Shown in pieces: positions 11,937 to 32,562 of a stretch of DNA of 64,000 nucleotides; the first letter of the stretch is position 1; every line of letters starts with the position of its first letter. The position numbers and the translations under genes were made by a program. This DNA is from an uncultured Acidobacteriota bacterium. Its GTDB lineage: Bacteria > Actinomycetota > Acidimicrobiia > Spongiisociales > ZC4RG35. The notes beneath the pieces were generated by a model. The model did not search any database, had not been told where the DNA came from, and was given only the letters and a program-made list of their open reading frames with translations. The stretch covers positions 118,956-182,955 of the forward strand of contig CAVZVJ010000002.1 of the NCBI GenBank assembly GCA_963778755.1, given 5' to 3'.

Positions 11937-12105
11937 CCATCTCAACCGCGAGGTCATCATCTGGACCTCGAGTCTTGACAGCATCGAGAACACCGAAAAC
12001 GGGATCGTGGTCCGCTACCAATGTGCGTGTGGCCGTCCTGCAGAAATGCTGACCGGCGCCGGCTCGCCCGTTCGGGTCAACGTCCATGTCGGTGCAGACA
12101 TCTGA
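11917..12105 (+). CDS. Hypothetical small Cys/His-containing protein (62 aa, possible zinc-ribbon-like)
   Basis: The protein is MFLAHCDHLNREVIIWTSSLDSIENTENGIVVRYQCACGRPAEMLTG..., with a CxH ... CxC spacing. Its GC content is below the window average. Confidence 0.3.
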   Translation: MFLAHCDHLNREVIIWTSSLDSIENTENGIVVRYQCACGRPAEMLTGAGSPVRVNVHVGADI

Positions 12106-12156
12106 GCTGCCTCGCATCGGGGGAATAGCGACGGTCGGCAAACCTTTATAACTGTC

Positions 12157-12675
12157 ATGCCTATCAATCGTCTCAACCACGCCGTGCTCTATGTGCGCGA
12201 CGCCGACAGATCGGCGTCCTTCTACACGGAGGCGCTCGGTTTCCGCCGTCTTCCGCTGGAATTCCCGGGCGCTGTGTTCCTGCAGGCTGAAGGGTCGACC
12301 AACGACCATGACCTGGGTCTGTTCTCGATCGGGACAGCCGCTGCGGACTCCCCGGCGGGCCGTGGTGCGGTTGGGCTCTATCACCTCGCATGGGAGGTCG
12401 ACACGCTCGGCGACCTGGCGCGTTTGGCACGGGTGCTCTCGGATGCGGGCGCCCTGGTTGGTGCGACGGACCATGGGAGCACGAAGGCCCTGTACGGGCG
12501 CGACCCAGATGGAATCGAATTCGAGATCAGCTGGCTGGTCCCGGCGGATCTTCTCGACGAGGACACCGCCCCAACCGCGAGACGTCTCGACATCCAGGCC
12601 GAGATCGATCACTACGGGGCGGACACCCTCGGGGGAGTCGGCGTCAGTCGTCCCCGTGTGGCTGTCGAGTCCTGA
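12157..12675 (+). CDS. VOC-family (glyoxalase/bleomycin-resistance/dioxygenase fold) protein
   Basis: NHAVLYVRDADRSASFYTEALGF is a typical glyoxalase-fold N-terminus. The protein is 172 aa. Confidence 0.8.
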   Translation: MPINRLNHAVLYVRDADRSASFYTEALGFRRLPLEFPGAVFLQAEGSTNDHDLGLFSIGTAAADSPAGRGAVGLYHLAWEVDTLGDLARLARVLSDAGALVGATDHGSTKALYGRDPDGIEFEISWLVPADLLDEDTAPTARRLDIQAEIDHYGADTLGGVGVSRPRVAVES

Positions 12676-12686
12676 AGAACGCCTCT

Positions 12687-13313
12687 TTAGGACGAAGTCC
12701 GGTGGTCGTTGGTGCGGCCTACGACAAACCAGATCGCATGAACCGGCTGATCGCCGATGTTGAACAAGCGATGAGGCTGGGTCGAGTCGAAACCGATTGA
12801 ATCACCCGGCTCCAACTCGTAGGTATCGAAGCCGAGTTGGATTCCGAGACGACCTGAGATGATGTACCCGTACTCCTTGCCGTTGTGGCGCATCAACGAC
12901 TCGTCCGGGGTCGAGGCGCCCCCCACCTCGTAGACCGCATGGAGAAAGTCGATTCCCTGGTCGGTATCACGGCTCAGCTGCTCCCAACGAACACCGGAAG
13001 CGAGATCGATGGCCTCACGTTCATCAGGATGGACCAGCGGACTAGGCCCTCCATTGGCAACGACAGCCTGCCTGCCGGGTGTCCCGGATGATGGAGAGTG
13101 GTCTGCGCCGCGCAAGAGCTTGTCCAACGACAGGTCGAGCTCGGTGACGATTGCGTACAGGGTGCCCACCGAAGGCTTGGAAAGACCGCTTTCGAGTTGC
13201 GAGATCAGACTGGGGGATAGGCCGAGGCGACGGGCCAGCTCGCGTTGGCTGATTCCGGCCTTGGTCCTCTCATCACGGAGCCGATCACCGATTCCCTCCA
13301 GCTCCTCAGTCAA
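12687..13313 (-). CDS. XRE-family transcriptional regulator with C-terminal cupin domain
   Basis: N-terminal HTH_3 (ISQRELARRLGLSPSLISQLESG) and C-terminal cupin_2 (GDSIGFDSTQPHRLFNIGDQPVHAIW). Confidence 0.85.
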   Translation of the reverse strand: MTEELEGIGDRLRDERTKAGISQRELARRLGLSPSLISQLESGLSKPSVGTLYAIVTELDLSLDKLLRGADHSPSSGTPGRQAVVANGGPSPLVHPDEREAIDLASGVRWEQLSRDTDQGIDFLHAVYEVGGASTPDESLMRHNGKEYGYIISGRLGIQLGFDTYELEPGDSIGFDSTQPHRLFNIGDQPVHAIWFVVGRTNDHRTSS

Positions 13314-13356: not shown

Positions 13357-14049
13357 CTAGGTCAGGAGCCAGCCACCATCCACGTAGAGGTTGATGCCGT
13401 TCACGGACCGATTCTCCAGAAGGAAGACGGTGGCATCGACCACATCCTCCATGGTGACCAGACGCTGAGTTGGGGTCCTTGCCAACACCGCGTCGAGTGG
13501 CTTGTCCTTCCAATACGGACTGTCACCGACGATTCCCGGGTGGAGCGCATTGAATCTGATCGGTGAAAGCTCGATCGCCAGAGCTCTGATCATCGAGCTC
13601 ACCCCGCCATTCACGGTGGTGACGGTTATCGAGCCGGGATAGGGCCGGTCCTTGGCCCTCCCTCCAAAGAGAACAACCGAGCTGGTGTCGCTGAATTGGG
13701 GGACGAGGGCGTGAATCACCTCGACATAGCTGACCAGTTTCATGGTTGTCAGCTCGGTGCCGGCATCGAGGTCATACTCTTTGGCCAGGTTGTTGTCCCG
13801 AGCGATCGCGGCGAGGATCAGTCGAGACACAGGCCCAATTCCATGCAGAGCCGGGGCGATAAGGGACGGGTCGGTCATGTCGAATCCGAGACCGGTGACG
13901 CTCCCGCCGATTCCAGAGGCGATCTCGGCGGTGCGGTCGGGATCACGGCCAGTGATCACCACTTCACTCCCGCCCTTGGCGTAGTGGCGAGCCACTTCGA
14001 GCCCGAGGCCGCTGGTCCCACCCACCACGATGACCTTGCCGTTTTCCAT
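13357..14049 (-). CDS. SDR-family short-chain dehydrogenase/reductase
   Basis: VIVVGGTSGLGLEVA is the Rossmann TGxxxGxG motif. 230 aa. Confidence 0.9.
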   Translation of the reverse strand: MENGKVIVVGGTSGLGLEVARHYAKGGSEVVITGRDPDRTAEIASGIGGSVTGLGFDMTDPSLIAPALHGIGPVSRLILAAIARDNNLAKEYDLDAGTELTTMKLVSYVEVIHALVPQFSDTSSVVLFGGRAKDRPYPGSITVTTVNGGVSSMIRALAIELSPIRFNALHPGIVGDSPYWKDKPLDAVLARTPTQRLVTMEDVVDATVFLLENRSVNGINLYVDGGWLLT

Positions 14050-14124
14050 CTTTTGAGTCCTATTTCTCCGGATCTCCGACCCTGACCGGCCGGGAAGGCA
14101 AGCCTACATCCCTTTGCGTGGGCG

Positions 14125-14138
14125 TGTGTAGTGTCACT
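14125..14138. promoter_or_regulatory. Recurring 14-nt motif TGTGTAGTGTCACT (instance 1), 25 nt upstream of the bicupin gene start
   Basis: Same motif as at 15130 and 24325. It contains the quasi-palindrome AGTG-T-CACT and a TAGTGT (TANNNT) -10-like hexamer. Confidence 0.4.
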
Positions 14139-14162
14139 GATCGGTCAGCTGATTGGAGCCAA

Positions 14163-15059
14163 ATGTCGACGCATATCGTCAAGAAAGCCGGAGATCACGA
14201 CTATCAGGTTCCGGGTGGGTTTCAGGGGCGGAGCCAGGGCTACTTCGGGGATGGAATCGTGAATGAGGCAGCCGGTGGCGTCCAGATGGGTTTCCAGGTA
14301 TCACGGCTCGACATAGGAGGGGTGGTGGGGGGCCATCTCCATTCGTTCGAGGAGACCCTTTATGTGATCGAGGGGGGTCTCGTTGTCGACCTCCCCGAGG
14401 GGAGTTTCGAGCTCGCGCCCGGCGACTACGGCCTGATTCCGGTCGGCGTGGCCCATTCTCTGCGCAATCCGAGTGAGACGGTTGCGAGCTTTGCCGAGAT
14501 GAGGGCCCCACTCCCTCGCGAGCGCCACGAGTTCGACACCTATTTCGTTGAGGCGCCCTCCCCAGGAACTGAGCGGCGCATCGATGTGCGTGACCCAAGG
14601 ACCCGCAGCTTCGGCCACATAGACCCCGAGAACATGGATCCGGCCATGCAGACCCAGGACCGTCTGTCGCTCAGCGCAAGCATGCGCACCGCCCTGCTCG
14701 TGTACAGCGGGATCTCGGTGAAGATGATGATCGACTCCGACCTGGGAGCGGACCTGTCAACGATGTTCATGGTGCAATACGTGCCGGGAGGCTTCGCCGG
14801 AGCCCATGACCATCCACTCGAGGAGGCGTATCTCATCCTCGAAGGGGAGGTCGAGGCTGGATTCGATGGAGCCAAGTACCACATGGTGCCGGGTGACGTC
14901 GCCTGGGCAGGTGTCGGTTGTGTTCACGAGTTCCGAAACGTCGGTCAGGGCCCGGTCCGATGGTTGGAGACCCAGGCGCCTCAGCCGCCGGCCCGCCATA
15001 GCTACCGGTTCCGAAGGGACTGGGCCTACCTGACCGAGGCCCTGGCCGCCACCGATTGA
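14163..15059 (+). CDS. Bicupin-domain protein (two cupin barrels; dioxygenase/hydrolase-like)
   Basis: Two cupin cores are present: HLHSFEETLYVIEGG ... LIPVGVAHSLRN, and AHDHPLEEAYLILEGE ... VHEFRNVG. The start is taken at ATG 14163 (MSTHIVKK), 6 nt after GGAGCC. Confidence 0.75.
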   Translation: MSTHIVKKAGDHDYQVPGGFQGRSQGYFGDGIVNEAAGGVQMGFQVSRLDIGGVVGGHLHSFEETLYVIEGGLVVDLPEGSFELAPGDYGLIPVGVAHSLRNPSETVASFAEMRAPLPRERHEFDTYFVEAPSPGTERRIDVRDPRTRSFGHIDPENMDPAMQTQDRLSLSASMRTALLVYSGISVKMMIDSDLGADLSTMFMVQYVPGGFAGAHDHPLEEAYLILEGEVEAGFDGAKYHMVPGDVAWAGVGCVHEFRNVGQGPVRWLETQAPQPPARHSYRFRRDWAYLTEALAATD

Positions 15060-15129
15060 TGTGCGTCCCAGAATCGGCCGGATCGGTGGCTTCGACGACG
15101 TGTTTTGTGGGGCTGAACCGGGTGTGATT

Positions 15130-15143
15130 TGTGTAGTGTGACT
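15130..15143. promoter_or_regulatory. Recurring 14-nt motif TGTGTAGTGTGACT (instance 2), about 120 nt upstream of amidohydrolase gene 15265
   Basis: Identical to instance 1 except for one base (C/G). Confidence 0.4.
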
Positions 15144-15264
15144 TATCAGTGAGTGGCCTTAACACCCCACTATCGGCCGCTGCCTTCACCGGAGTTTTCG
15201 CTTCGCCTCTCATCGGTCACTCCATTGAGTCGGACATAGGAAGCGCAGGGATCGGGAGCGCCGG

Positions 15265-16557
15265 ATGAAGTCTCGAACGCTTCTCCGTGGCGGGTGTGTG
15301 CTCACCCTCGGCAGAACCAACTTCTTGGAGGCCGACGTCTTGATCGACGGCGACATCGTGGCCGAAATCGGTCCCGGGCTCCGGGCTCGCGATGCCGAGG
15401 TGATCGACGCCAGCAACACCATCATCATGCCGGGATTCGTCGACACCCACCGCCATGTGTGGCAGTCGTTGTTCCGAAATCTCGGCGACGCCATATCGCC
15501 CGACGTGTACGGGCCCTACTACCAGCCCGATGATGTCTACGCCGCCACCCTGATTGGCCTCCTGGGGGCGATCGAGGCGGGCATCAGCACGGTGGTCGAC
15601 TGGTCCGACATAAGCCCGGGCCCGGAGTATCTCGAGGCGGCAACCCAGGCGCATACCGACGCGGGCATTCGATCTGTGCTTGTCCCGGCGGCCCCGGAAT
15701 GGACCGACGGCCGAGATGCCCTTTCGTTGGCCTCGCCCCAATCCAATATGGCCAACCCGCTCATGACCATGGGCGCGGGCATGCCGAGCCCCATGGCAGA
15801 AACCCTTGGTCAGATTGCCGAAGATTGGGCCAAGGCTCGAGAACATGGGCTCCGGATCCACACCCACATCGGGCATGACACCAGCACGCAGGGAGTCGTC
15901 GGCGATCTCTCCAGAAACGGAATGCTGGGAAAGGACGTCACCTTTATCCAGTGCACCCACCTCAGCGACTCCGACTTCGACGCCGTCTCCTCCTCCGGGG
16001 CTCGGGTCTCGTTGACGCCCACCAGCGGGATGTCGGGTAGTGCGGGGAGCCCTCCTATCCAGAGGCTCATCGACCGCGGCATCCGACCCGGCCTTGGGGT
16101 CGGATCCGACCAGATGGCACCGGGAGACATGTTTGCCCAGATGCGGGCAGTGATCTCGATCCAACACGCGACTTTGTTCGAACTGAAACTTGCCGGCAAG
16201 GCAGGAGTACCTAACCTCCTCAACACCCGAGAAGTGCTTCGCTACGCCACCGTCGATGGGGCTCGGGTCGCCGGCCTGGGTGAAACCGTGGGGGCACTCG
16301 CACCAGGGGCTCAGGCCGATCTCATCGTGCTCCGGGCCGATCGTCCCAATATCTTCCCGATCAACGACCCGATCGGCGCAGTCGTCTGGGGGATGGACAC
16401 ATCGAACGTCGACTGGGTTTTCGTCGCCGGAAACGCAGTCAAACGTGCGGGCGTCCTTCAGGGCGACATCGGAAGGGCCACTGAACTTGCAACGGCGGCG
16501 CAGCAGCGGGTGGGCGCAGCCGCCGGGCTACTCGCAACCGTTGGGCATTCACAATGA
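15265..16557 (+). CDS. Amidohydrolase-superfamily metal-dependent hydrolase (cytosine/guanine-deaminase / chlorohydrolase-like, TRZ/ATZ type)
   Basis: The protein has IIMPGFVDTHRHVWQS (metal-binding HxH), a (beta/alpha)8 fold and a C-terminal ...VFVAGN..KR motif. It is 430 aa and overlaps the downstream permease by 4 nt. Confidence 0.85.
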   Translation: MKSRTLLRGGCVLTLGRTNFLEADVLIDGDIVAEIGPGLRARDAEVIDASNTIIMPGFVDTHRHVWQSLFRNLGDAISPDVYGPYYQPDDVYAATLIGLLGAIEAGISTVVDWSDISPGPEYLEAATQAHTDAGIRSVLVPAAPEWTDGRDALSLASPQSNMANPLMTMGAGMPSPMAETLGQIAEDWAKAREHGLRIHTHIGHDTSTQGVVGDLSRNGMLGKDVTFIQCTHLSDSDFDAVSSSGARVSLTPTSGMSGSAGSPPIQRLIDRGIRPGLGVGSDQMAPGDMFAQMRAVISIQHATLFELKLAGKAGVPNLLNTREVLRYATVDGARVAGLGETVGALAPGAQADLIVLRADRPNIFPINDPIGAVVWGMDTSNVDWVFVAGNAVKRAGVLQGDIGRATELATAAQQRVGAAAGLLATVGHSQ

Positions 16558-17603
16558 CCACCACACGAGCACCTTCGTCGGCGCTGACTTCGTTTGTCGT
16601 CGCCTCCCGCTACTTGCCGGTCTATCTCGCTCTTCTCCTATTGGTGATCGTGGCCGCGATCTGGGCGCCCGCCACTCTGAGTGGGGTCGCGCTGGCGGCG
16701 ATCGCTCCCTTTGGAGCACTGCTCGGGATAACTGCCCTGGGCCAGATGCTGGTAATCATGACGGGAGGGATCGACCTCAGTGTCCCGGGGACGCTGACCC
16801 TGGCCGCCGTGATCATGGTTGGAGTCAGCGATCAGTCTGATGAGAGAATCGGGGTGGCAATCGCCACTGCGATCGGGGTCGCCGCTCTGATCGGTCTTGT
16901 CAACGGAATTCTGATCGGCGGACTGAAGCTCAACGCTCTGATCGTGACGCTCGCAGTGGGACAGGTCGTGCTCGGGGTAGTCAATCGCTACAGCACGACA
17001 TTTCCTGTGCAGAGCGCGGTGCCAACCAGCCTCTCCGATTGGACCTCGACCCGCATCCTTGGTGTCAGCCCCATCTTCTGGATGGGTGTCGTGCTGACGA
17101 TCATCGTCATCGTCGGCCTCAGGTACACAACGGGTGGGCGCCGGTTCCAGGTCGTAGGAGCGAACCCGATCGCCTCCAGAGTTGTAGGGGTCAGGGTGAA
17201 CCTGTACCAGATCTCGGCTTATGTGATGGCCGCCGTCCTCTATGCCATTGCCGGGGTGGCCTTGGCGGGACTGCTCCGGAATCCGGGGGTAAACATCGGG
17301 ACCCCGTATCTCCTGGGCCCGATCGCCGCAGTCGTGATCGGCGGAGCCTCCTTGACCGGCGGCCTCGCGAGCCCGCTTTCCACCTTTGCTGCCGCCATCT
17401 TCCTCACCGGTCTCACCCAGATGATGCGAACGCTGGGACTGCCCACGTCCCTGCAGTTCGTCGTCTTCGGTCTGGTCATCATCGGGGGGATGTTGATTTC
17501 GGGCGATCGGATCATCAAAGGCGTGGAGCAATTGCTCCGCGAGCGACGAAAACCGACACGCATCGAAAACGAAACGACCAACAGCTCACTCGGGATCAGT
17601 TGA
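16554..17603 (+). CDS. ABC transporter permease (BPD_transp_2, ribose/branched-chain type)
   Basis: 349 aa with 8-10 TM segments and typical RbsC-like topology. Confidence 0.85.
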   Translation: MTTTRAPSSALTSFVVASRYLPVYLALLLLVIVAAIWAPATLSGVALAAIAPFGALLGITALGQMLVIMTGGIDLSVPGTLTLAAVIMVGVSDQSDERIGVAIATAIGVAALIGLVNGILIGGLKLNALIVTLAVGQVVLGVVNRYSTTFPVQSAVPTSLSDWTSTRILGVSPIFWMGVVLTIIVIVGLRYTTGGRRFQVVGANPIASRVVGVRVNLYQISAYVMAAVLYAIAGVALAGLLRNPGVNIGTPYLLGPIAAVVIGGASLTGGLASPLSTFAAAIFLTGLTQMMRTLGLPTSLQFVVFGLVIIGGMLISGDRIIKGVEQLLRERRKPTRIENETTNSSLGIS

Positions 17604-17679
17604 GAAAGGAGATTCGCGACCCGACGAGTCGACATCAATCAAAGAACCTAAAGGGCAGTCCGCCCAATAGAGGAGGAAC

Positions 17680-19050
17680 ATGAAACGATCGAAGATCATC
17701 GGCCTGCTGGCCGTCCTGGTCTTGGTCGTGTCCGCCTGTGGCAGCAGCACCGAGGACACGACAACCACCGGGGCAGGGGCCACGTCGACCTCGGCGGCGG
17801 CCGGGACAACGACCACCGCCTCAGCGGGCCCGACCACGACGGCCGGCGGCGAAAACCCGCTGGCGGCGTACAACGAGGACCCAACCGCTGCCGACCCGGC
17901 ACTGGTGACCAAGGCCCTCGGTGATGTCGAGCCTTCGGACGCGGATAGCTGGAACATCATTCTGGCTTCAATCGCCCGTGCCAATCAGGACCTGGATCAG
18001 GCCACGATCGACAAGGCGATGGAGTGCTGGAGCAACCAGCAATGCGACACCGGCTCCGGTGGTGACGTGGTGATGGGCTATGCCGACGGCGGTGGCGACA
18101 CCGTGAACGTCTGGCGGGCGGTGAGCCACATGGAGGCCATCCTCCAGGCGCTGAGCTATCCCGAGATCGGGAGCATCATCTCGACCGCGGCGAACTTCGA
18201 GGGTGACCCAGCGGTCAACGACATCCGCTTCCTGATCACCAGTGGCGTGGACTTCATCGTCGGCTACCCGGACTGGGGCACCTACTTGAGCCCTGTGCTC
18301 TTGGAAGCCCACGACGCGGGGATTCCCTACGTGTCGTTCTCAGCCGGTTGGGTCGGTCTTCCCGACCAGGAAGGCGCGCTCGTTCCCGGTCAGGACTACT
18401 TGTCCGTGGTTGGGGAGGACCTGTGTGCACTCGGCACCAGCTTTGCCACCGTGCTCAACGACAACGTGGGCGGCGGCGAGGTCGGGATGCTCGGTGGAAC
18501 ACCGGGCAACGCCCTTTCCCTCGGCTGGCAGCGCTGTGCGGTGACGACACTCGCCGACGGCGGGTCCCAATTGGTGAACCCACCGCCGGATGAGAACACC
18601 ACCACTGGCGACACCTACTGGGTGAACGCCAACGCTCTCGAGGCGGTCCGCGGCTTGCTGACCACCAATCCCGAGATCAAGGGGTGGACGTACGAGTACT
18701 CGGACGGTCTCTACACCGCCCTCCAGGCTTACGACGAGCTTGGGATCCCGGTGAAGAACCTCAGCGTGGCGTTGCGCACCGACGAGCAGACCCTGTTCTG
18801 CGACTGGGCGGAGCGTGCTGAGCCGACCTACAACATCTGGTACTCGGCTGGTGGCAACTTCCAATCACGGACCGGCGTCACCGCGGCGATGATGTCCCTC
18901 GCTGGGGCAACCATCCCTGCTGAGGTCGTCGTCCCGCATGTGATGCGGCAGGTCACCACGGGCGACTGCAACCCGGACCGGGTCAACCCGGTTGTGTCGG
19001 GAACCTCATTGGTTCCGGACTCGGTTCTGCAGTTGATGTTTGCCGGTTAA
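17680..19050 (+). CDS. ABC transporter substrate-binding lipoprotein (periplasmic-binding-protein type I fold)
   Basis: Signal peptide with lipobox LVVSAC, followed by a Thr/Ala-rich linker. Preceded by the RBS AGGAGG. Its stop overlaps the ATPase start. Confidence 0.75.
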   Translation: MKRSKIIGLLAVLVLVVSACGSSTEDTTTTGAGATSTSAAAGTTTTASAGPTTTAGGENPLAAYNEDPTAADPALVTKALGDVEPSDADSWNIILASIARANQDLDQATIDKAMECWSNQQCDTGSGGDVVMGYADGGGDTVNVWRAVSHMEAILQALSYPEIGSIISTAANFEGDPAVNDIRFLITSGVDFIVGYPDWGTYLSPVLLEAHDAGIPYVSFSAGWVGLPDQEGALVPGQDYLSVVGEDLCALGTSFATVLNDNVGGGEVGMLGGTPGNALSLGWQRCAVTTLADGGSQLVNPPPDENTTTGDTYWVNANALEAVRGLLTTNPEIKGWTYEYSDGLYTALQAYDELGIPVKNLSVALRTDEQTLFCDWAERAEPTYNIWYSAGGNFQSRTGVTAAMMSLAGATIPAEVVVPHVMRQVTTGDCNPDRVNPVVSGTSLVPDSVLQLMFAG

Positions 19051-20639
19051 TGACGGATAGCAGTCCCAACGGAGGGTCAGCTTCCGGGAACCTGGTTCTC
19101 GAGTTGAGTGGTGTGTATCGCCAATTCGGGGCGGTGCGAGCCCTCAGCGACGTCAGTTTCGACTGCCGCGCCGGCGAGGTTCATGCCCTCGTCGGTGAGA
19201 ACGGCTCCGGAAAGTCGACCCTCCTCGGGATTGCTAGCGGGTTCGTAGAGCCCGACAGGGGAACGGTGCGCATAGGCAGTAAGCCCTTGCGCACCGATTC
19301 CCCGGCTCAGGCCCGAAACCTGGGGCTGGCCATGGCCTATCAGGACACCTCTCTGATCCAGGCCGAGCCGGTCAAGAACAATCTGTTTCTCGCGGCTCCG
19401 CCCGAGGAGCGCCCGCCGTTCTGGCGCCGTAAGAAGTGGGCCCGCAAGTTGCTAGCCGAGTTCGACCTCGACATCGAGCTCTTCCCCGATGCCCCTGCCG
19501 GATTCCTCACACTGGCGGAGCGCCAAATGTTCGAAGTCGCCAAGGCCTTGGTCTCCAATCCCAAAGTGCTTCTGCTCGATGAGCCCACCACCGCCCTGGG
19601 CCCTGACGAAGTCGAGGCCTTGCACCGAACTGTCATTGCATGCAGAAAGCGTGGCATCGGTGTCGTGTATGTGAGTCACCGCCTGCCAGAGGTACTCGAG
19701 GTTGCAGACCGTGTCACTGTTCTCCGTGACGGTCAGACTCAGGGCACCTTCGACGCAAAGACCACGACCGAGTCGAAGCTGGTCGAGCTAATCGTCGGCC
19801 GGCCCTTCGAGGCGGCATTCCCGCAGGCCCACCCAACGTTTGGTGAGCCACGAGAGGTGTTGGTCGTCGACGGGCTTCAGGGCCAGTCGTTCGGGCCGGT
19901 CAGTTTCACCCTGGAGAGCGGTGAGATCGTCGGTATCGCCGGTGCAGAGGGCAACGGCCAGCCACAACTCTTCGACTGTCTCGCCGGCCGAGTGCCTCCG
20001 CGAGCGGGACGCGTTGTCTGTGACGGCGAGGTGCTGAGCCTGATCTCTACCCACGAGGCGGTAGCTGCCGGTGTCATGCTTCTTCCCGGCGACCGCAAGC
20101 AAGAGGCCCTCATGCCCGTGCTTGGTGTCAGGGTGAACTCCACTGTTCAAACCCTCAGACGGTTCAGTTTCCTTGGCTTCATGAAAAGGGGAGCTGAGCG
20201 CCGGACGGTCAACGATTTGATCGAACAGCTGGAAATCCGAACCCCGTCCTTGGAACAACCAGTCGAATTCCTCTCCGGCGGGAACCAGCAAAAGGTCTCG
20301 GTGTCCCGTTCGTTCCTCAAGAAACCTGCGGTGATCATGGCCTATGAGCCAACTCAGGGTGTTGATGTCGGCTCTCGTTTCGATATCTACAAGGCCCTTC
20401 GCGCACGCACTGATGGCGGGGCTGCCCTTCTCGTCAAATCAAGCGACCCCATCGAGCTCTCCGGTCTCTGCGACCGGGTTCTCGTCATGTCCCGGGGCAC
20501 GATCGTCGAAGAGATACCGGGCGACGAGCTCGACGAGTTGCGAATCATCGAGGCGATCGTCCGAGGTCCTGGATTGTCCAAGGCCGGTAGGTCGCCCCTC
20601 GGCATCGCCATGCCCAAGTCCACGCCGGCTTCCCTGTAA
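19050..20639 (+). CDS. ABC transporter ATP-binding protein with two fused ABC domains (RbsA/MglA-like)
   Basis: Walker A GENGSGKST, signature and Walker B LLLDEPTTALG are present. The second domain has GAEGNGQ and LSGGNQQK. 529 aa. Confidence 0.9.
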   Translation: MTDSSPNGGSASGNLVLELSGVYRQFGAVRALSDVSFDCRAGEVHALVGENGSGKSTLLGIASGFVEPDRGTVRIGSKPLRTDSPAQARNLGLAMAYQDTSLIQAEPVKNNLFLAAPPEERPPFWRRKKWARKLLAEFDLDIELFPDAPAGFLTLAERQMFEVAKALVSNPKVLLLDEPTTALGPDEVEALHRTVIACRKRGIGVVYVSHRLPEVLEVADRVTVLRDGQTQGTFDAKTTTESKLVELIVGRPFEAAFPQAHPTFGEPREVLVVDGLQGQSFGPVSFTLESGEIVGIAGAEGNGQPQLFDCLAGRVPPRAGRVVCDGEVLSLISTHEAVAAGVMLLPGDRKQEALMPVLGVRVNSTVQTLRRFSFLGFMKRGAERRTVNDLIEQLEIRTPSLEQPVEFLSGGNQQKVSVSRSFLKKPAVIMAYEPTQGVDVGSRFDIYKALRARTDGGAALLVKSSDPIELSGLCDRVLVMSRGTIVEEIPGDELDELRIIEAIVRGPGLSKAGRSPLGIAMPKSTPASL

Positions 20640-23092
20640 TGACCGGGCGCATGGACTCGACGAGGCTGGCGGTGCGCAAGGTCATCCGTGACGCCCGGGA
20701 CAAGAACAAATGGCGCAAGGTGGTCAAGGTGCGTCTCTGGATGCCCGTCGCACTTCAGATCATCCTCCTCGGGGCACTGGTCTGGTACACCGAGTCGCGA
20801 TTCCCTGGCTTCGTCAATGTCACGAATGTCTCCCAGATTCTGATCCTTGCGATTCCGCTGATCATCGCCACCTTCGCCCAGACTCACGCCCTCCTGGTGG
20901 GGTACATCGACCTCTCGGTCGGCGCCATGATCAGCTTTGGAGTGGTGGTCGCCTCGTTTCTGATCGGCGCCGAGTCGACCGGTTCTGAGATCCTTATTGG
21001 TGTGCTGGCGATATTGGGGAGTGGTGTCGCCCTGGGCCTGATCAATGCCGGGCTCATTCGCGGGGTGAAGATCCCCTCAATCATCGCCACCCTGGCGACA
21101 TTGAGCATCCTGGACGGGATCTCGCTGACCTTGCGGCCAACTGCCCAGGGGATCATCAGCCCCGACCTGGTGTCGACGCTGACCACGAGCATCGGGCCGA
21201 TTCCAATCGCATTTATCGGCGTCGTCGTGGCTGCCGGCCTTCTCGACTTCTGGCTCCATGCTTCGGGGAAGGGTCTCGAGGTGAGAGCGGTCGGCTTCGA
21301 CGAGCGGTCCGCCAAGCGGAGTGGCATCAGGACCAATTGGGTTCGGGTCCGGGCCCTAATCCTCTCCGCGGGCCTTGCTGCCGTCGCGTCATTCTTCGTG
21401 ATGGCCCGAGCCCCGACCGGGAACGCACAGGTCGGGTCCACCTATGCCCTGGCAAGCATCACCGCTGCGGTCCTGGGTGGGGCTTCGCTCGCCGGGGGCC
21501 GGGCCACCTTCGTTGGGGGACTCGTCGCCTCGATCCTGCTGGCTGTCGTCCTCACCGTGCTGCCCTACCTCGGCCTCTCTAACACGGATGGCCTAATGAT
21601 CGTTGGGGTCCTGGTGCTGCTCGGGATCGTTTTGTTCCAGGTGGGAGACATCAAGGAATTGGTGAAGAGGAACTATCGACGCGCACGTCGGGTGTTCCTG
21701 GCGAGCCGCCCGGTCAAGGTTTCCGAGCTCCCAACGTTCTATCCGGCGGGAACCGACTTCCGGGTGGTTCCAACCGGCCGCAAGCTGATCAAGGGAGGGA
21801 CCGTTCTCAGTCTCGACCCCAATGTCGGCGATTTCAGCACCGGGGATGTCTTGATCGAAGGCAGCAAGATCGTTGGTGTCGGCCCAGCGCTGGCCAACGG
21901 TGACGTGGAGCTGATCGACGCCACAGGGATGATCGTGATGCCGGGATTCGTTGACAGCCACCGGCACATCTGGGAGGGCCTCCTCCGCAACATTGGGACC
22001 GATGTTCCGCTGGAGGGGCGAACGAGCTACATCTCCTTCGTCCTTCACAAACTGGCGCCGGCCTTCCGACCTGAGGACGCATACATCGGCAACCTTGTTT
22101 CGGCTCTCGGAGCGATCGATGCCGGGATCACAACACTCCTCGACTGGTCTCACATCCAGGCGTCACCCGCTCACACCGACGCGGTGGTCAAGGCGCTCCA
22201 AGATTCAGGGCTTCGGGGAGTCTTCGCCTACGGGTTCCCCTGGTGGGGGAAGTGGGAAGAGCGTCAGCCGAGCTGGTTTGTCCGCGCCGCCACAGAGCAC
22301 TTCTCCTCCAAGGACCAGATGCTCACCTTGGCGCTGGCCGCTCCCGGTCCCGAGTTCACCGACTTCGAAGTGTCCCGTGATCATTGGAAGCTGGCCCGGG
22401 AGACTGGGGCCAGGATCACCACCCACGTCGGTGTCGGAAGCTACGGCCAGGATTCCAAGGTACAGGAGATGGGAGAGGCCGGTCTGCTCGGACCCGACAC
22501 CACCTACATCCATTGCACGACCCTGAATGACACCGAGATTCAGATGATCGTCGACACCGGTGGGACGGTGTCCCTGGCTTCGCCGGTGGAGATGATGATG
22601 GGTCACGGGATGCCGCCGATCCAGAAGTTCCTGGACCGGGGACTGCGCCCCAGCCTCAGTGTGGACGTGGAGACCAATGTGCCCGGGGACCTGTTCAACC
22701 AGATGAGATCCGTCATCGGGCTGCAGCGGGCGATGGGCACCGCTAACGGCAAATCGCCGGTGTCGGTGCGCGATGTGCTCGAGTTCGCCACCGTTGAGGG
22801 GGCTCGGGCCAATGGCCTCGAATCCAAGGTCGGGACCCTCACGCCGGGCAAAGAGGCCGACGTGATCTTGCTCCGCACCGACCGGATCAATGTCACTCCT
22901 CTCAATGACCCGGCCACCGCAGTTGTCGCAGGGATGGATACCTCGAACGTAGACACGGTCTTCATCGCAGGGCGGGTGATGAAGAGAAACGGGGAGCTCC
23001 TCCACGTCGATTGGCCGGCCGTGCGCCGGATGGCCCTCGAATCACGTGACTACGTCATCGAAAAGTCCGGCTTCAAACTTCCCAAGATTTGA
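20639..23092 (+). CDS. Fusion protein: ABC transporter permease (BPD_transp_2, residues about 1-340) fused to an amidohydrolase-superfamily hydrolase (residues about 375-817)
   Basis: A single 817-aa ORF. The N-terminal half is a multi-TM permease paralogous to 16554..17603. The C-terminal half (KLIKGGTVLSLDP ... IVMPGFVDSHRHIWEGLLRNIG) is a clear paralog of the amidohydrolase at 15265..16557. There is no in-frame stop between the two domains. Confidence 0.8.
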   Translation: MTGRMDSTRLAVRKVIRDARDKNKWRKVVKVRLWMPVALQIILLGALVWYTESRFPGFVNVTNVSQILILAIPLIIATFAQTHALLVGYIDLSVGAMISFGVVVASFLIGAESTGSEILIGVLAILGSGVALGLINAGLIRGVKIPSIIATLATLSILDGISLTLRPTAQGIISPDLVSTLTTSIGPIPIAFIGVVVAAGLLDFWLHASGKGLEVRAVGFDERSAKRSGIRTNWVRVRALILSAGLAAVASFFVMARAPTGNAQVGSTYALASITAAVLGGASLAGGRATFVGGLVASILLAVVLTVLPYLGLSNTDGLMIVGVLVLLGIVLFQVGDIKELVKRNYRRARRVFLASRPVKVSELPTFYPAGTDFRVVPTGRKLIKGGTVLSLDPNVGDFSTGDVLIEGSKIVGVGPALANGDVELIDATGMIVMPGFVDSHRHIWEGLLRNIGTDVPLEGRTSYISFVLHKLAPAFRPEDAYIGNLVSALGAIDAGITTLLDWSHIQASPAHTDAVVKALQDSGLRGVFAYGFPWWGKWEERQPSWFVRAATEHFSSKDQMLTLALAAPGPEFTDFEVSRDHWKLARETGARITTHVGVGSYGQDSKVQEMGEAGLLGPDTTYIHCTTLNDTEIQMIVDTGGTVSLASPVEMMMGHGMPPIQKFLDRGLRPSLSVDVETNVPGDLFNQMRSVIGLQRAMGTANGKSPVSVRDVLEFATVEGARANGLESKVGTLTPGKEADVILLRTDRINVTPLNDPATAVVAGMDTSNVDTVFIAGRVMKRNGELLHVDWPAVRRMALESRDYVIEKSGFKLPKI

Positions 23093-23107
23093 GGGCTGGG
23101 GGGAGAG

Positions 23108-24331
23108 ATGAGGTACGACGTCTGCATCGTCGGAGCCGGGTTGGTGGGGTTGAGCGTGGGCCGGGCTGTCCTGGACCAGTATCCGGGTTCCTCCGTCGTG
23201 GTTATCGACAAGGAGGACCGGATAGCCGCCCATCAGAGCAGTCACAACAGCGGGGTCGCCCACTCAGGTCTCTATTACCGGCCCGGCTCCCTCAAGGCGA
23301 GGCTGTGTGTGGAGGGTCGAGCTCAACTGGAGAGGTTCTGTGAGAAGGCTTCGATCCCTTTTCGCAGACTGGGGAAAGTGGTGATCGCCACAGATCCGGC
23401 CGAGTTCGGGGCCCTCGACGAGTTGGAGCGGCGGGGACATGCCAACGGGCTGACCGGGCTGCGTCGGCTCAACGGCGCTGGAATTCGTGAGGTCGAACCG
23501 GCGGCAACCGGGCTCCAAGGGCTTCACGTGCCCGAAGCCGGTGTAGTGGACTTTCCGGCGGTCGCCGATCACCTTGCTGCAGAACTTCAACGAAACGGCG
23601 CCGAGGTGCGTACCGGACTCGCCGTCACTGCAATCGACCACGTAGTCGATGGAGCGCGGATAGTCGCTGGCGACCAGGAACTCCGAACCCGGATCATGGT
23701 CAACTGCGCCGGGTTGCAGTCGGACCGCGTGGCGTCCCTGGCCGGCGTGAAGAGCGATGTGCGGATAGTCCCGTTCCGGGGGGAGTACTACACCCTTGCC
23801 CCTGAGGCTGCTCATCTGGTGAACGGGCTGGTCTATCCGGTGCCGGACCCCCGGTTCCCATTCCTCGGAGTCCATTTCACGCGGCGGGTCGATGACTCGG
23901 TCGAGGTTGGCCCAAACGCGGTGCTTGCCCTGGGGCGAGAGCACTATCGGGGGGCTCCGATCGAGTGGGGAGACGTCAGGGAGATGGCGATACTGGGTGG
24001 GTTGTGGAAGCTGGCTGGCAAACACTGGCGCACAGGTGGGGCGGAGGTGTTCCGGTCGAAATCGCGGGCCCTCTACGCCCGTTCTGCCCAGAGACTGGTC
24101 CCCACCCTCAGAAGCGAGCACCTTCGTCCTGGTGGTGCCGGGGTGCGGGCGCAGGCAATGGGCCGTGATGGCCGCTTGGTGGACGATTTCGTCATCGAAG
24201 AAGTCGGGGCAACGTTGCATGTGCTCAACGCCCCGTCGCCCGGAGCCACCGCGAGTCTCGCCATCGGAGCCCATATTGCGGGGCTGCTCAGACCGCAGCT
24301 GGCCGGGTTGACGGGTGGAAGGGGTGTGTAG
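23108..24331 (+). CDS. lhgO: L-2-hydroxyglutarate oxidase/dehydrogenase (FAD-dependent, LhgO family)
   Basis: YDVCIVGAGLVGLS is the FAD GxGxxG motif. SHNSGVAHSGLYYRPGSLKA, FRGEYY and VYPVPDPRFPFLGVHFTRR ... VGPNAVLA match the E. coli LhgO/YgaF blocks almost position for position. Confidence 0.85.
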   Translation: MRYDVCIVGAGLVGLSVGRAVLDQYPGSSVVVIDKEDRIAAHQSSHNSGVAHSGLYYRPGSLKARLCVEGRAQLERFCEKASIPFRRLGKVVIATDPAEFGALDELERRGHANGLTGLRRLNGAGIREVEPAATGLQGLHVPEAGVVDFPAVADHLAAELQRNGAEVRTGLAVTAIDHVVDGARIVAGDQELRTRIMVNCAGLQSDRVASLAGVKSDVRIVPFRGEYYTLAPEAAHLVNGLVYPVPDPRFPFLGVHFTRRVDDSVEVGPNAVLALGREHYRGAPIEWGDVREMAILGGLWKLAGKHWRTGGAEVFRSKSRALYARSAQRLVPTLRSEHLRPGGAGVRAQAMGRDGRLVDDFVIEEVGATLHVLNAPSPGATASLAIGAHIAGLLRPQLAGLTGGRGV

Positions 24332-24338
24332 TGTGACT
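24325..24338. promoter_or_regulatory. Recurring 14-nt motif TGTGTAGTGTGACT (instance 3), overlapping the lhgO stop codon, about 80 nt upstream of the M24 gene
   Basis: Identical to instance 2. A TTGACG hexamer lies 15 nt upstream, at 24308-24313. Confidence 0.4.
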
Positions 24339-24418
24339 GTTCATTGTTCACGAGCCTTCCGAAGGGTCGCGGTTCGGAATTTGGATGAAGAACTGATACG
24401 AATGAGGAGGAGAGAACC

Positions 24419-25674
24419 ATGACCGACTTTCCGGTAGCCACCACCCCGGCCCCAGGGGTCATGGGTGTGGATTGGGAGGATCGTGTCGACTTTCCCCGAC
24501 TTCGCTCCTACCGCCTGGACCGGGTCCGTCAGCAACTCGAGGCCAACGATCTGGGCGCGGTCCTCCTTTTCGAGACTTCCAACATCCGTTATGCAACTGC
24601 GACGCAGATCGGCTATTGGGCTTTCAACAAGGGGGAGCGCTTCGCCCTGATCACCCGCAAGGGCCGTCCCCGAATCTGGGACTTCGGATCGGCTGCCAAG
24701 GCCCACCGACGCCAGTTGCCCGACCTGTATGACCTGGAGAACTCGATTGGAGGGAACACCGGGCTCCAGGGCGCAATTGGGCCCAGCTCCGGCCTGCATA
24801 CCCGTGCGGCCGCCGAGATCGGGGCAGTGCTCCGTGATGAAGGGCTTATCGACGATCTCCTCGGAGTCGACATGGCCGAGACCGCGGTCTTCCTTGCCCT
24901 GCAGAAGGAAGGGCTGAAAGTGACCGACGGCCAGCAGGCGATGATGCTGGCCAGGGAGATCAAGAGCTCGGACGAGATCGTCCTTCTTTCCCAGGCCAGC
25001 GCCATGGTGGACGGCGTGTATCACGAGATATACGAGACGCTGAAGCCCGGAATCAGGGAATCGGACATCGTGGCCCTGGCCCATGGCCGGTTGTTCGAGA
25101 TGGGCTCTGAGTTTGTCGAAGCCATCAACTCCATCGCGGGCGAGAGATGCAGCCCGCACCCCCACGTGTTCAGCGACCGGTTGATCCGACCAGGTGACCA
25201 GGCCTATTTCGACATCATTCACGCCTACAACGGGTATCGGACCTGTTACTACCGCACCTTCGTCGTGGGGCGGGCGACAACCGCCGAGCGCGATGCGTTC
25301 AAGCAGTCACGGGAGTGGATGGACGCGGCCATCGAGTTGGTCCGGCCGGGCAACACCACCGACATGATCGCCAAGGTCTGGCCACGGGCCGAAGACTTTG
25401 GCTTTGTCGACGAGATGGACGCCTTCGGGCTTCAGTTCGGTCACGGGGTCGGAGTCGGTCTCCACGAGCGCCCGATCATCAGCAGGCTCAACTCGCTAGA
25501 CGATCCGATCGAGATCAAAGAGGGTATGTACTTCGCCCTCGAGACCTACGCCCCGGCCACGGACGGCCGCTCGGCAGCACGCGAATCGAGGAGATGATGG
25601 TGGTCACCGCCGAAGGGCCAAAGATCACCACCTTGTTCCCGTGCGAGGAGTTGATGGTGGCGAATGAGTACTGA
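24419..25674 (+). pseudogene. M24-family metallohydrolase (creatinase/prolidase/Xaa-Pro aminopeptidase-like, with Creatinase_N domain), reading frame disrupted near 25565-25580
   Basis: ORF 24419..25597 encodes Creatinase_N plus the pita-bread domain, then terminates after ETYAPATDG. The conserved C-terminal block RIEEMMVVTAEGPKITTLFPCEEL continues in a different frame (ORF ending 25674). This implies a single-base indel. Confidence 0.6.
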
Positions 25675-26734
25675 GGTCGACGCCGGGCTCTACGACTACG
25701 CCCAGCGACCTCCCCGGCTCCCGACGCCAACCAACCCAGAGAACGACAGGCTCGACATCGATCTCGACACCCGGATCGAGATGTTCGAGATGCAACAGGT
25801 GCTCCGTCAGTTCGAGGATCGGGTCTACGACCTGTTCATGCAGAATCTGGTGAAGGGGACCAGCCATCTCTCGTTGGGGATGGAGGCCATCGCCACCGGA
25901 GTCGCGAAGGCGATGCGCCCGGATGACTACACCTTTGCCACGTATCGGGGCCACGCTCACACCGTCGCCAGAGGGGCTCCGCTGGGCCCGGTCTTAGCGG
26001 AGTTGCTGGGGAGGGACACGGGGATCCTCGGAGGCAAGGGTGGTTCGATGCACCTCACGTCGGTCGAGCACGGGATGATGGGCAGCTACGCCATCATCGG
26101 CGCCCACCTCTGCGTCGCCAACGGTGCGGCGTGGTCAGCCCAACTTCGCGGGACCGATCAGGTTGCAGTTGCCTTCTTCGGAGACGGGACCACAAACATC
26201 GGGGCATTCCACGAGGCGCTCAACCTGGCGTCGATCTGGAACCTCCCGGTCGTGTTCGTCTGTGAGAACAACCTCTACATGGAGTACACACCAATCGATC
26301 TGGTGACAGCCGCCAGTAACCCGGCTGCAGGTCGGGCTCCGGCTTACGACCTGGAGCAGGTTGTCATCGACGGCAACGATGCCGACGAGGTCTACGTCAC
26401 GGCGAAGCTGGCATTGGAGAAGGCTCGCCAGGGCGACGGGCCGTCGCTGATCGAAGCGGTGACGTATCGCCACGGCGGTCACAGCCGTGCCGATCCCGGC
26501 AAATACCGTCCAGCGCAGGAGGTCGAGGCGTGGATGGCCCACGACCCGCTGCCCACCTACCACCAGCGTCTGCTTCGCCTGGGGGTTGCCGAGTCCAGGC
26601 TTTCCGAGATCGTCCATCAGGTAACGGATCGAGTTGAAGAGGCGACCGCCTTCGCCAAGGCGGGGGAGCGGCCAGGGGAGCAGGTCCTGATGACCGATGT
26701 CTGGGCGGACGGGGGGGCATCGTGGCGGAACTGA
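25664..26734 (+). CDS. TPP-dependent 2-oxoacid dehydrogenase E1 component, alpha subunit (PdhA/AcoA-like)
   Basis: The TPP-binding region is present (GDGTTNIGAFHEALNLASIWNLPVVFVCENN). 356 aa. Confidence 0.85.
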   Translation: MSTEVDAGLYDYAQRPPRLPTPTNPENDRLDIDLDTRIEMFEMQQVLRQFEDRVYDLFMQNLVKGTSHLSLGMEAIATGVAKAMRPDDYTFATYRGHAHTVARGAPLGPVLAELLGRDTGILGGKGGSMHLTSVEHGMMGSYAIIGAHLCVANGAAWSAQLRGTDQVAVAFFGDGTTNIGAFHEALNLASIWNLPVVFVCENNLYMEYTPIDLVTAASNPAAGRAPAYDLEQVVIDGNDADEVYVTAKLALEKARQGDGPSLIEAVTYRHGGHSRADPGKYRPAQEVEAWMAHDPLPTYHQRLLRLGVAESRLSEIVHQVTDRVEEATAFAKAGERPGEQVLMTDVWADGGASWRN

Positions 26735-27699
26735 GTTATCGCGAGGCCGTTGCCCGCGGAATCGCCCAGGAGATGCGGCGCGATCCCACCCTGGTCATGC
26801 TGGGTGAGGACATCGCCGGCGCCGGTGGAGTCTTCAAGACAACCGTCGGCCTCCTCGATGAATTCGGGCCGAAACGGATCCGGGATACTCCCATATCCGA
26901 GCAGGCGATTCTGGGCGCGGCGATGGGGGCCGCCATGACCGGCGTGCCAGTGATCGCCGAGATCATGTTCTCCGACTTCCTGGCCGTCTGCTTCGACATG
27001 GTCGCCAATGAGATGGCGAAGACGAGGTACATGACGGGTGGTCAGTTCACCATCCCGGTGGTGATCCGAACTGCCAACGGCGGCGGGGTGCGTTTCGGTG
27101 CACAGCACAGTCAGAGTGTTGAGAACTGGTGCATGATGATTCCCGGGCTCAAGGTGGTTGCCCCGTCGACACCTGAAGATGTTGTGGGCCTGATGGCGGC
27201 AGCGGTCCGCGACCCCGATCCGGTCGTCTTCTTCGAGCACAAGTCATTGATGGCCACCAAAGCCGACATGCCCGACACCGACATCGTGGGCAAGCTGGGT
27301 GAGGCCAGGGTCGTCAGGCCGGGCACCGATTGCACCATCGTCGCTCTCGCTTTCATGGTGCCCCGCGCTGTGGAGGCTGCCGAGCGTCTCGCTGCCGACG
27401 GGGTCTCAGCCGAGGTGATCGACCTTCGAACCCTGGTCCCGCTCGACACCCGGTCCATCCTCAGCTCGGTGGCGAAGACGGGTTGGCTGTTCACTGTCGA
27501 AGAGAACCCGCGCTTGTGCGGGTGGGGAGCGGAGGTGGCTTCGATCGTCGCCGAGGAAGCGTTTTGGGACCTGGATGGCCCGGTCATTCGGATCACGACT
27601 CCTCACATTCCCCTTCCTGCCGCGGAGAATCTGGAGGATCTGGCGATCCCCTCGGTGGACCGGATCTACGAGACGATCAAGAAATCGGTTGGCCGTTGA
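26722..27699 (+). CDS. 2-oxoacid dehydrogenase E1 component, beta subunit (transketolase-like)
   Basis: The transketolase pyrimidine-binding and C-terminal domains are present (DTPISEQAILGAAMGAAMTG). 325 aa, overlapping the alpha subunit by 13 nt. Confidence 0.9.
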   Translation: MAELSYREAVARGIAQEMRRDPTLVMLGEDIAGAGGVFKTTVGLLDEFGPKRIRDTPISEQAILGAAMGAAMTGVPVIAEIMFSDFLAVCFDMVANEMAKTRYMTGGQFTIPVVIRTANGGGVRFGAQHSQSVENWCMMIPGLKVVAPSTPEDVVGLMAAAVRDPDPVVFFEHKSLMATKADMPDTDIVGKLGEARVVRPGTDCTIVALAFMVPRAVEAAERLAADGVSAEVIDLRTLVPLDTRSILSSVAKTGWLFTVEENPRLCGWGAEVASIVAEEAFWDLDGPVIRITTPHIPLPAAENLEDLAIPSVDRIYETIKKSVGR

Positions 27700-32517: not shown

Positions 32518-32562
32518 CCCACTTCGTGGTGACGTTTTCCGATCGGATAGTGTCTAACTGAC

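Follow-up and report, generated by a model that had tools for sequence, protein, structure and literature searches.

The stretch of DNA analyzed here, referred to as the window, comprises 64,000 nucleotides of contig CAVZVJ010000002.1 from an uncultured member of the Acidimicrobiia. Within it, a short sequence element recurs in front of three transcription units that encode a bicupin, a TRZ/ATZ-type amidohydrolase together with an ABC importer, and an M24 creatinase-like hydrolase together with E1 alpha and beta proteins. The first copy lies in a region shared with a divergently oriented operon for an SDR oxidoreductase and an XRE-cupin transcription factor. Comparative material was drawn from genomes and metagenomes. 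More than 5,000 bicupin homologues were found at E <=1e-20, and an alignment of them was used to fetch the 80 best genomic loci with 10-kb flanks (1.25 Mb in total). In addition, metagenome contigs were scanned for the pattern TGTGTAGTGTSACTNNTCA, which yielded 120 loci. Individual loci are designated by L numbers, and scores in bits refer to a 23-nt position weight matrix (PWM) built from the relatives' sites. The principal features of the window are listed below.

14125..14143, + strand: site 1, predicted 19-bp promoter-operator TGTGTAGTGTCACTGATCG, 35.5 bits, with TAGTGT at 14129-14134
15130..15148, + strand: site 2, predicted 19-bp promoter-operator TGTGTAGTGTGACTTATCA, 35.6 bits, with TAGTGT at 15134-15139
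24325..24343, + strand: site 3, predicted 19-bp promoter-operator TGTGTAGTGTGACTGTTCA, 32.3 bits, with TAGTGT at 24329-24334
14101..14106, - strand: TAGGCT, putative -10 hexamer of the divergent SDR/XRE-cupin promoter, read from the sequence
14130..14125, - strand: TACACA, -35-like hexamer of the same putative promoter, identical to the left arm of site 1, with an 18-nt spacer to TAGGCT
12687..13313, - strand: XRE-cupin transcription factor of 208 aa and proposed repressor (Pfam HTH_3 2e-15, Cupin_2 2.2e-15)
13357..14049, - strand: SDR oxidoreductase, which leads the divergent SDR/XRE-cupin operon and neighbours the regulator in 65 of the 80 genomic loci
14163..15059, + strand: bicupin gene, unit of site 1 (Pfam; 298-aa homologues align over 100% of its length)
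15265..24331, + strand: unit of site 2, with TRZ/ATZ-type amidohydrolase, CUT2-type ABC importer, permease-amidohydrolase fusion and LhgO-like flavoprotein (Pfam/NCBIfam)
24419..27699, + strand: unit of site 3, with M24 creatinase-like hydrolase and thiamine pyrophosphate-dependent E1 alpha and beta, in an order kept in 50 to 60 loci

The 14-nt pattern TGTGTAGTGTSACT has exactly three matches in the 64-kb window, all on the + strand, at 14125-14138, 15130-15143 and 24325-24338. The first copy reads TGTGTAGTGTCACT and the other two both read TGTGTAGTGTGACT. The sequence-only reading, in which these copies were first pointed out, had held that they were unlikely to arise by chance, and the numbers bear this out: none of 100 dinucleotide-preserving shuffles of the window contained a match, and the expectation estimated from base composition is about 4e-4 matches. 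When up to three mismatches to the 14-mer were allowed across the window, no site beyond the three appeared, and a PWM scan with a threshold of at least 8 bits returned only the same three copies. The distances to the genes were likewise as described: counted from the 14-mer, the ATG codons of the bicupin (14163), amidohydrolase (15265) and M24 (24419) genes stand 24, 122 and 81 nt away, respectively, and the gene identities agree with Pfam and NCBIfam matches. Other details had to be revised. The window measures 62.5% G+C rather than 68%. Copy 3 is not wholly intergenic, as 7 nt of it fall within the open reading frame (ORF) of the LhgO-like oxidase, the stop codon of which is the TAG of the site 3 hexamer. 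A degenerate fourth copy had also been placed at 32545. The string GGATAGTGTCTAACT is indeed present at 32545-32559, but it scores below 8 bits, has only TAGTGT in common with the motif and precedes a methyltransferase gene that lies outside the conserved cluster, and it was therefore not retained as a member. The positions 32548-32565 read TAGTGT-N9-ATG of the methyltransferase gene, with the spacing of the motif family and without the dyad described below; this is probably an ordinary leaderless promoter.

Each copy of the window is kept at the orthologous position in L001, L002, L003 and, in part, L052, while the surrounding sequence has diverged, and the flanks of the three window copies are unrelated to one another (mean column identity 50%). 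Conserved positions amid diverged flanks argue that the copies have been maintained by selection and are not the product of recent duplication. Site 1 lies inside a divergent region of 113 bp, where the block gTGTGTAGTGTCACTGATCGGTC is kept in L001, L002 and L003 amid diverging flanks. The bicupin start was set at ATG 14163 because the 298-aa homologues align from there at 100% coverage and a GGAG Shine-Dalgarno sequence precedes it. A mechanical ORF list begins the gene at GTG 14118, which would bury site 1 in the coding sequence, and this start was rejected since the homologues align from 14163. Site 2 heads the amidohydrolase/ABC-importer unit and occupies the same place in L001, L002, L003, L052 and metagenomic relatives. 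Site 3 heads the M24/E1 alpha/beta unit, from which it is separated by an 84-nt leader (counted from the hexamer) with the Shine-Dalgarno sequence GAGGAGGAG, and it is orthologous to the promoter of a reductase gene in L052 and L116.

The bicupin homologues are labelled Acidimicrobiia or Actinomycetota, and the closest is 91% identical (L001; CAVRWT010000006). Sites of at least 20 bits were found in 56 of the 80 genomic loci, although protein identity is no higher than 60-75%. Outside the closest relatives (L001, L002, L003 and partly L052), the bicupin mostly comes second in its operon, and the motif stands about 900 nt upstream, before a HIBADH-like (tartronate-semialdehyde-reductase-like) gene. 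The canonical cluster carries XRE-cupin and SDR genes on one strand. On the other strand, it carries a second site, an LhgO-like oxidase gene (not always present), the primary site, and then the genes for reductase, bicupin, M24 hydrolase, E1 alpha, E1 beta, amidohydrolase, ABC importer and permease-amidohydrolase. Judged by these comparisons, the element heads a conserved, uncharacterised cluster of uncultured soil Acidimicrobiia, with a predicted role in nutrient breakdown. The cluster fits no named pathway in NCBIfam, where its genes gave sub-threshold matches only, except for L-2-hydroxyglutarate oxidase. The earlier suggestion of a regulon linking the bicupin, the amidohydrolase/importer and the M24/E1 genes gains from this arrangement, as the same genes form a single cluster or operon headed by the motif in other Acidimicrobiia.

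Strong sites also occur before other genes adjoining the cluster. In L065 such a site lies at 1084-1106 (33.2 bits), and the ORF downstream of it opens with a signal-peptide-like sequence and is followed by a second ABC system. In L021 the site lies at 5958-5980 on the - strand (19.9 bits), and the ORF downstream resembles another amidohydrolase by eye. By the distribution of predicted sites, then, the content of the regulon differs between genomes.

In the combined set of 80 genomic loci and 120 loci from metagenomes, the 14-mer makes up the left-hand part of a longer dyad with the consensus TGTGYAGTG-N-SRCTGAWCA. When motif positions are numbered from 0, the dyad spans 19 bp and is centred on position 9. 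Sites were picked on the 14-mer alone, yet positions 14-22 proved to be conserved too (G A T C A G T G A), and hardly any variation occurs at the ten bases of TGTGTAGTGT, some of which are not read by a sigma factor. Of the nine dyad pairs, five to six are complementary in 57-100% of sites, with complementary fractions of about 1.0 for the pair (5,13), 0.97 for (6,12), 0.88-0.97 for (1,17), 0.57-0.72 for (7,11) and 0.45-0.68 for (0,18); the pair (4,14) reaches 0.5 in the second class of sites only. Reverse-strand PWM matches of 12-19 bits accompany eighteen primary sites, always at an offset of exactly 18 nt. The second class, counted at 12 bits or more, comprises 41 sites; shuffled versions of the 1.25 Mb of flanks yield 0-3. 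Its consensus, TGTGCAGTGagaCTGAtCA, keeps the dyad and has no -10 T; TGTGCAGTGAGACTGATCA is an example. These second sites lie mostly in the divergent region or before the oxidase gene.

Two other symmetries were tried as the operator and rejected. The 14-bp perfect palindrome TCACTGATCAGTGA (positions 9-22) owes its right half to the GTG start and the next codon, and it was dropped in favour of the 19-bp dyad because many loci with ATG starts lose AGTGA and replace this half, yet keep positions 0-18. A GTG-N6-CAC dyad (positions 1-12) holds at only two pairs in the second sites. The AGTG-N-CACT palindrome noticed at the outset is perfect in copy 1 only, so that a small palindrome is present but the functional unit is predicted to be the 19-bp dyad and not these 9 bp. 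From the aligned sites, we take the unit to be TGTGYAGTG-N-SRCTGAWCA, with a -10-like hexamer built into the left arm of the primary sites.

That hexamer, TAGTGT, fits the actinobacterial -10 consensus TANNNT. Among 89 distinct sites, the reductase start codon stands at offset 19 in 65 (as GTG) and at offset 22 in 12, so that the gap from TAGTGT to the start is 9 or 12 nt in 77 of 89 and has no room for a Shine-Dalgarno sequence. An in-frame stop codon lies inside the motif in 78 of the 89. The dyad thus encloses the hexamer and ends at the start codon, and the promoter itself is deduced from hexamer and geometry. The fixed 9- or 12-nt gap is the geometry of leaderless or near-leaderless transcripts, as far as the arrangement of start codons can indicate. 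The canonical sites have this leaderless layout, as does site 2 of the window by way of an upstream GTG at 15149; sites 1 and 3 do not, having leaders of 28 and 84 nt (from the hexamer) with Shine-Dalgarno sequences.

The divergent SDR/XRE-cupin operon has a candidate promoter of its own in the same region. The sequence AAGCCTAYA, around its putative -10, is conserved in L001-L003, and an equivalent geometry is present in other loci as a TATCCT-type hexamer followed after 19 nt by TGTGCA. Since the left arm of site 1 doubles as the -35-like TACACA, 18 nt from TAGGCT, one bound protein could also shut the SDR/XRE-cupin promoter.

The XRE-cupin protein has a helix-turn-helix (HTH) domain at residues 12-66 (HTH_3) and a cupin domain at residues 127-196 (Cupin_2) according to Pfam. 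Its best NCBIfam match is PuuR (NF007408), at 58.5 bits against a cut-off of 211, and it is accordingly no PuuR orthologue by that measure. The HTH resembles those of the phage 434 and P22 repressors (1per, 1adr, 2r1j). ORF clustering over the 80 loci identified XRE-cupin as the only conserved regulator family in the neighborhood. Fifty loci have both the motif and the XRE-cupin gene, 0.06-2.1 kb apart. The motif is found without the regulator gene in six loci, all of which reach a contig end within 1.7 kb upstream, and the regulator is found without a strong motif in eight, all with distant orthologues at 36-49% identity. In the metagenomes, an XRE-cupin gene lies within 3.2 kb in 14 of the 17 reductase-type sites that have at least 3 kb of upstream sequence. 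The sequence-only reading had named the adjacent XRE-cupin as the obvious candidate regulator, and these associations point the same way. Within the Acidimicrobiia, the HTH is nearly invariant among orthologues (...GISQRELARRLGLSASLISQLESG.SKPSVGTLYAIVTEL...), paralleling the invariance of the operator.

More distant orthologues are accompanied by altered sites. Four Actinomycetes loci with XRE-cupin orthologues at 45-49% identity share the variant site GTGTGYAGTGrsGCTGAACAGTGG; in the three whose contig includes the start of the XRE-cupin gene, the site precedes that gene by 33-88 nt. In the Chloroflexota locus L062 (36% identity), the sequence TTGACA-18-TAGTAT is followed directly by TGTTCA-N7-TGAACA, with an overlap of one base, and this 19-bp dyad agrees with the Acidimicrobiia site at 14 of 19 positions. 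Judging from L062, a small sample, there is a hint that dyad and -10 are separable.

The Chloroflexota clusters have AT-rich control regions at L062 4276-4333, L075 4226-4239 and L074 3411-3450. TTGACA/TATAAT hexamers are visible in L074 and L075, and the promoter in L062 was found by scanner. One of the TGTTCA/TGAACA-type dyads in these regions overlaps a -35 and one stands just after a -10. Such dyads may be a diverged counterpart of the operator.

A motif that recurs throughout genomes regardless of gene context would be hard to reconcile with a regulon, and this is not what emerged from the metagenomes. The 120 loci were split at a G+C content of 0.58, and in 85 of the 90 contigs at or above this value, cluster genes adjoin the 19-mer. 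The 30 low-G+C contigs with the pattern, none of which carries cluster genes, look like chance matches. Three of the other five high-G+C contigs were judged to be cut off by contig ends, and the remaining two have the 19-mer before a TetR-like gene. Eight amidohydrolase/ABC operons are headed by the exact 19-mer (L103, L121, L126, L132, L136, L160, L162 and L176) with 4-13 kb of upstream sequence that holds neither XRE-cupin nor any other cluster gene. Occurrence of the 19-mer at loci unlinked to the regulator argues for a trans-acting factor, and not merely for shared ancestry of one promoter.

In the two contigs with the TetR-like gene, the exact 19-mer TGTGTAGTGTCACTAGTCA stands directly before the ATG of a 202-aa protein, at 1678-1696 of L081 and at about 4068-4086 (-) of L178. 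The protein was read as TetR-like from its N-terminal sequence, and no cluster genes are nearby. This may be a chance resemblance or an extra member of the regulon.

The sequence-only reading had left the choice between a shared promoter element and the operator of a single regulator, and the comparative evidence favors both together. We consider it probable that each copy is a composite promoter-operator, in which TAGTGT lies within a 19-bp dyad that would be bound by a dimer of the XRE-cupin protein. With the repressor in place, both the -10 hexamer and the transcription start would be masked and RNA polymerase excluded; at site 1 the masking would extend to the -35 region of the divergent SDR/XRE-cupin promoter, so that the regulator would be autoregulated. 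A small molecule from the pathway would then bind the cupin domain and free the protein from DNA, and upon this release the bicupin, amidohydrolase/ABC-importer and M24/E1 units would be switched on together.

Several observations weigh against this interpretation. The dyad is imperfect, with pairs (2,16) and (3,15) not complementary, and its left arm TGTG is far better conserved than the mirror of that arm. No canonical sigma-70 -35/-10 pair was found at 13950-15350 or 24150-24500, which include all three sites, when at least 9 of 12 matches to TTGACA-17-TATAAT with a spacer of 16-18 nt were called for; the promoter assignment therefore rests on hexamer and geometry and not on a full consensus. 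The typical gap of actinobacterial leaderless genes is 6-8 nt, and the 9 nt seen here is slightly longer. Covariation of regulator and operator within the Acidimicrobiia was uninformative, as the HTH varies too little, and the Chloroflexota comparison consists of three loci. Finally, the size of the regulon was gauged from locus flanks and metagenome matches only.

Foremost among the alternatives is a promoter with no repressor site, that is, a constrained extended -10 and discriminator that fixes a leaderless start and is read by a housekeeping or alternative sigma factor. The fit of TAGTGT to TANNNT, the constant gap of 9 or 12 nt between hexamer and start codon in 77 of the 89 sites and the superior conservation of the left half, which includes the hexamer, would all be expected of such a promoter, and the unrelated TAGTGT-N9-ATG before the methyltransferase gene at 32548-32565 has the same layout. 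Against this, the second sites keep TGTGCAGTG...CTGATCA without the -10 T, and dyad symmetry is accompanied by reverse-strand PWM matches at a fixed offset. These two features and the presence of the 19-mer at unlinked operons argue for a repressor operator over a bare promoter. Furthermore, a single gene cluster accounts for essentially all occurrences of the motif, which is not a property of promoters at large, no sigma-factor gene is conserved nearby in the ORF clustering of the 80 loci, and in L062 the related dyad sits after a canonical -35/-10 pair, with the one-base overlap. We regard a promoter on its own as unlikely.

It is also quite unlikely that the element is the operator of a different, unlinked regulator, for instance a global regulator of nitrogen or carbon metabolism, with the XRE-cupin protein controlling something else. 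Some operons with the motif have no linked XRE-cupin gene, so a trans factor is needed in any case, and TGTG...CAC is superficially similar to a CRP site. Yet TGTG-N6-CACT is 2 bp shorter than the CRP/GlxR consensus TGTGA-N6-TCACA, and the site does not qualify as one of CRP/FNR type. Motif and XRE-cupin gene co-occur perfectly wherever the flanks permit a test, variant sites stand directly upstream of distant XRE-cupin orthologues, and genes of other kinds are without the motif in the 1.25 Mb of flanks and the metagenome matches, apart from the two TetR-like contigs.

An element acting on the RNA after transcription, such as a leader, riboswitch or processing signal, is very improbable. CACT...AGTG can pair, and the CGCT/GGTG variants would retain G-U pairs. 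Nevertheless, the window gave no Rfam match that reached gathering score, and the surroundings of the three sites gave none even at E up to 1. Shuffled sequences fold as well as the leaders do (z-scores 0.09, -0.69 and 0.08), and inspection of the aligned sites by eye showed no compensatory double changes. At most sites a start codon comes within 9-12 nt, and hence hardly any of the motif would enter the transcript; the distance to the gene ranges from 0 to 122 nt. A chance repeat, a recent segmental duplication or a small mobile element without regulatory role, which three near-identical short copies within 10 kb might suggest, can be set aside, given that none of the 100 shuffles gives a match, the flanks are unrelated and the comparative data contradict it, with orthologous positions conserved across species and dozens of genomes.

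The composite promoter-operator proposed here has counterparts among regulators of known function. XRE-cupin factors of Pseudomonas are local repressors that bind palindromes beside their own genes and occlude promoters (PMC7901475); those of P. aeruginosa include PauR, PsdR, ErfA, PA4987 and others (Trouillon et al. 2021, PMC7901475). Dimer formation and autoregulation are usual among XRE regulators (PMC12565409), and the Pseudomonas XRE-cupin repressors and PuuR of E. coli act on uptake and catabolism targets and are released by metabolites (PMC7901475; PMC12565409). The window regulator shares with them an N-terminal XRE HTH and a C-terminal cupin, a gene that adjoins the target promoters, with site 1 in its own divergent region, and a palindromic predicted site that would overlap a putative promoter of genes for small-molecule uptake and catabolism. 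Autoregulation through the divergent region is likely here as well. It differs in that the protein is not a PuuR orthologue (58.5 bits against 211), the host is an uncultured member of the Acidimicrobiia, the predicted operator encloses the -10 of a largely leaderless promoter and the system is known from sequence alone. By architecture and position, the system belongs with the XRE-cupin local repressors, as a predicted member of that type.

The HTH is detectably similar to those of the phage 434 and P22 c2 repressors, and a dimer would likewise read a short dyad, here CAGT-N5-ACTG with 9 bp (about one helical turn) between half-site centres. Unlike the phage proteins, the window regulator has a ligand-sensing cupin, chromosomal catabolic targets and no tripartite operator array. 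Leaderless promoters of Mycobacterium and Streptomyces place TANNNT a few bases upstream of the start codon. The canonical sites resemble them in that GTG or ATG follows TAGTGT at a short, constant spacing that leaves no space for a Shine-Dalgarno sequence; they differ in the gap (9 or 12 nt as opposed to about 6-8) and in the conservation of the whole surrounding 19 bp, and sites 1 and 3 of the window precede ordinary Shine-Dalgarno leaders. We know of no published XRE-cupin operator that resembles the one described here. The operator sequence was not found in the searchable literature, where a search with the motif string gave primers and aptamers only.

The arrangement in the window can be compared with L116, where the order is permease-amidohydrolase, oxidase, site, reductase, M24 and E1. 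The window aligns with L116 over site 3 and over the last ~57 nt before M24, and the ~880-bp reductase gene between them is absent. A HIBADH-like reductase gene is present at this position in L052, L116, L101 and L122, and absent there in the window and L001. On this alignment, the leader at 24344-24418 is the remnant left after loss of the ~880-bp reductase gene. In this lineage, accordingly, the ancestral operon was split into three units and the reductase gene was lost. Each of the three resulting units (bicupin; amidohydrolase/importer/oxidase; M24/E1) is headed by a copy of the predicted element.

Further features of the three units and their surroundings are as follows.

15149..15268, + strand: upstream ORF of leaderless type with GTG start and 39 codons (MSGLNTPL...), the TGA of which overlaps the amidohydrolase ATG 15265 as ATGA
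15265-16557, + strand: TRZ/ATZ-type amidohydrolase (Pfam/NCBIfam)
20639-23092, + strand: ABC permease (BPD_transp_2) fused to a TRZ/ATZ-type amidohydrolase, 817 aa (NCBIfam PRK08204, 522 bits)
23108-24331, + strand: LhgO-like (L-2-hydroxyglutarate-oxidase-like) oxidase (Pfam/NCBIfam)
24419-25597, + strand: M24 creatinase-like hydrolase (Pfam/NCBIfam)

Upstream ORFs of 15-39 codons that begin at the GTG following site 2 and end in ATGA are present in the window, L003, L052, L113 and L171, and in L115, L148 and L157 that GTG serves as the start of the amidohydrolase (MSGPKTLLRGG). The ORF at 15149-15268 looks like a leaderless upstream ORF translationally coupled to the amidohydrolase gene. The genes of the site 2 unit abut or overlap each other, and the CUT2-type importer in it consists of a permease, a binding protein and an ATPase. 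The permease-amidohydrolase fusion at 20639-23092 has a tblastn counterpart over at least half its length in 59 of the 80 loci; it is unusual for a transporter subunit to be joined to a hydrolase. Next to the XRE-cupin gene on its downstream side, and in the same orientation, an ORF of 255 aa at 11845-12612 (-) has no Pfam match, and its tblastn matches (44-58% identity) among the loci examined are confined to the close relatives L001, L002, L115, L148, L151 and L171.

Acidimicrobiia are abundant in soil and largely uncultured, and to our knowledge almost nothing has been established about gene regulation in this class. The present analysis provides a precise prediction of a regulator and its operator, together with a regulon of about 12 genes; the cluster recurs in many metagenome-assembled genomes and metagenomes. 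The regulon prediction is solid but fairly ordinary and overturns nothing known; it does offer a clean example of a predicted operator that incorporates the -10 hexamer belonging to a leaderless gene. The pathway would combine TRZ/ATZ-type amidohydrolases, a bicupin, an M24 creatinase-like hydrolase, orphan E1 alpha/beta proteins, an LhgO-like oxidase and a CUT2 importer. We tentatively suggest, as a possibility short of an even expectation, that the element is a portable cassette of ~22 bp (-10 hexamer, repressor dyad and leaderless start) which was re-used to head new transcription units when the ancestral operon broke up, giving three copies in this lineage and unlinked transporter operons in others, and that it marks a widespread, undescribed regulon of the Acidimicrobiia for the degradation of what is probably a nitrogen-containing small molecule. 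If this is true, the operator and the XRE-cupin sensor would be a starting point for finding the inducer and the pathway. Since the cluster fits no named pathway, they could serve as a handle, in a biosensor or in ligand screening, by which the substrate may be identified.

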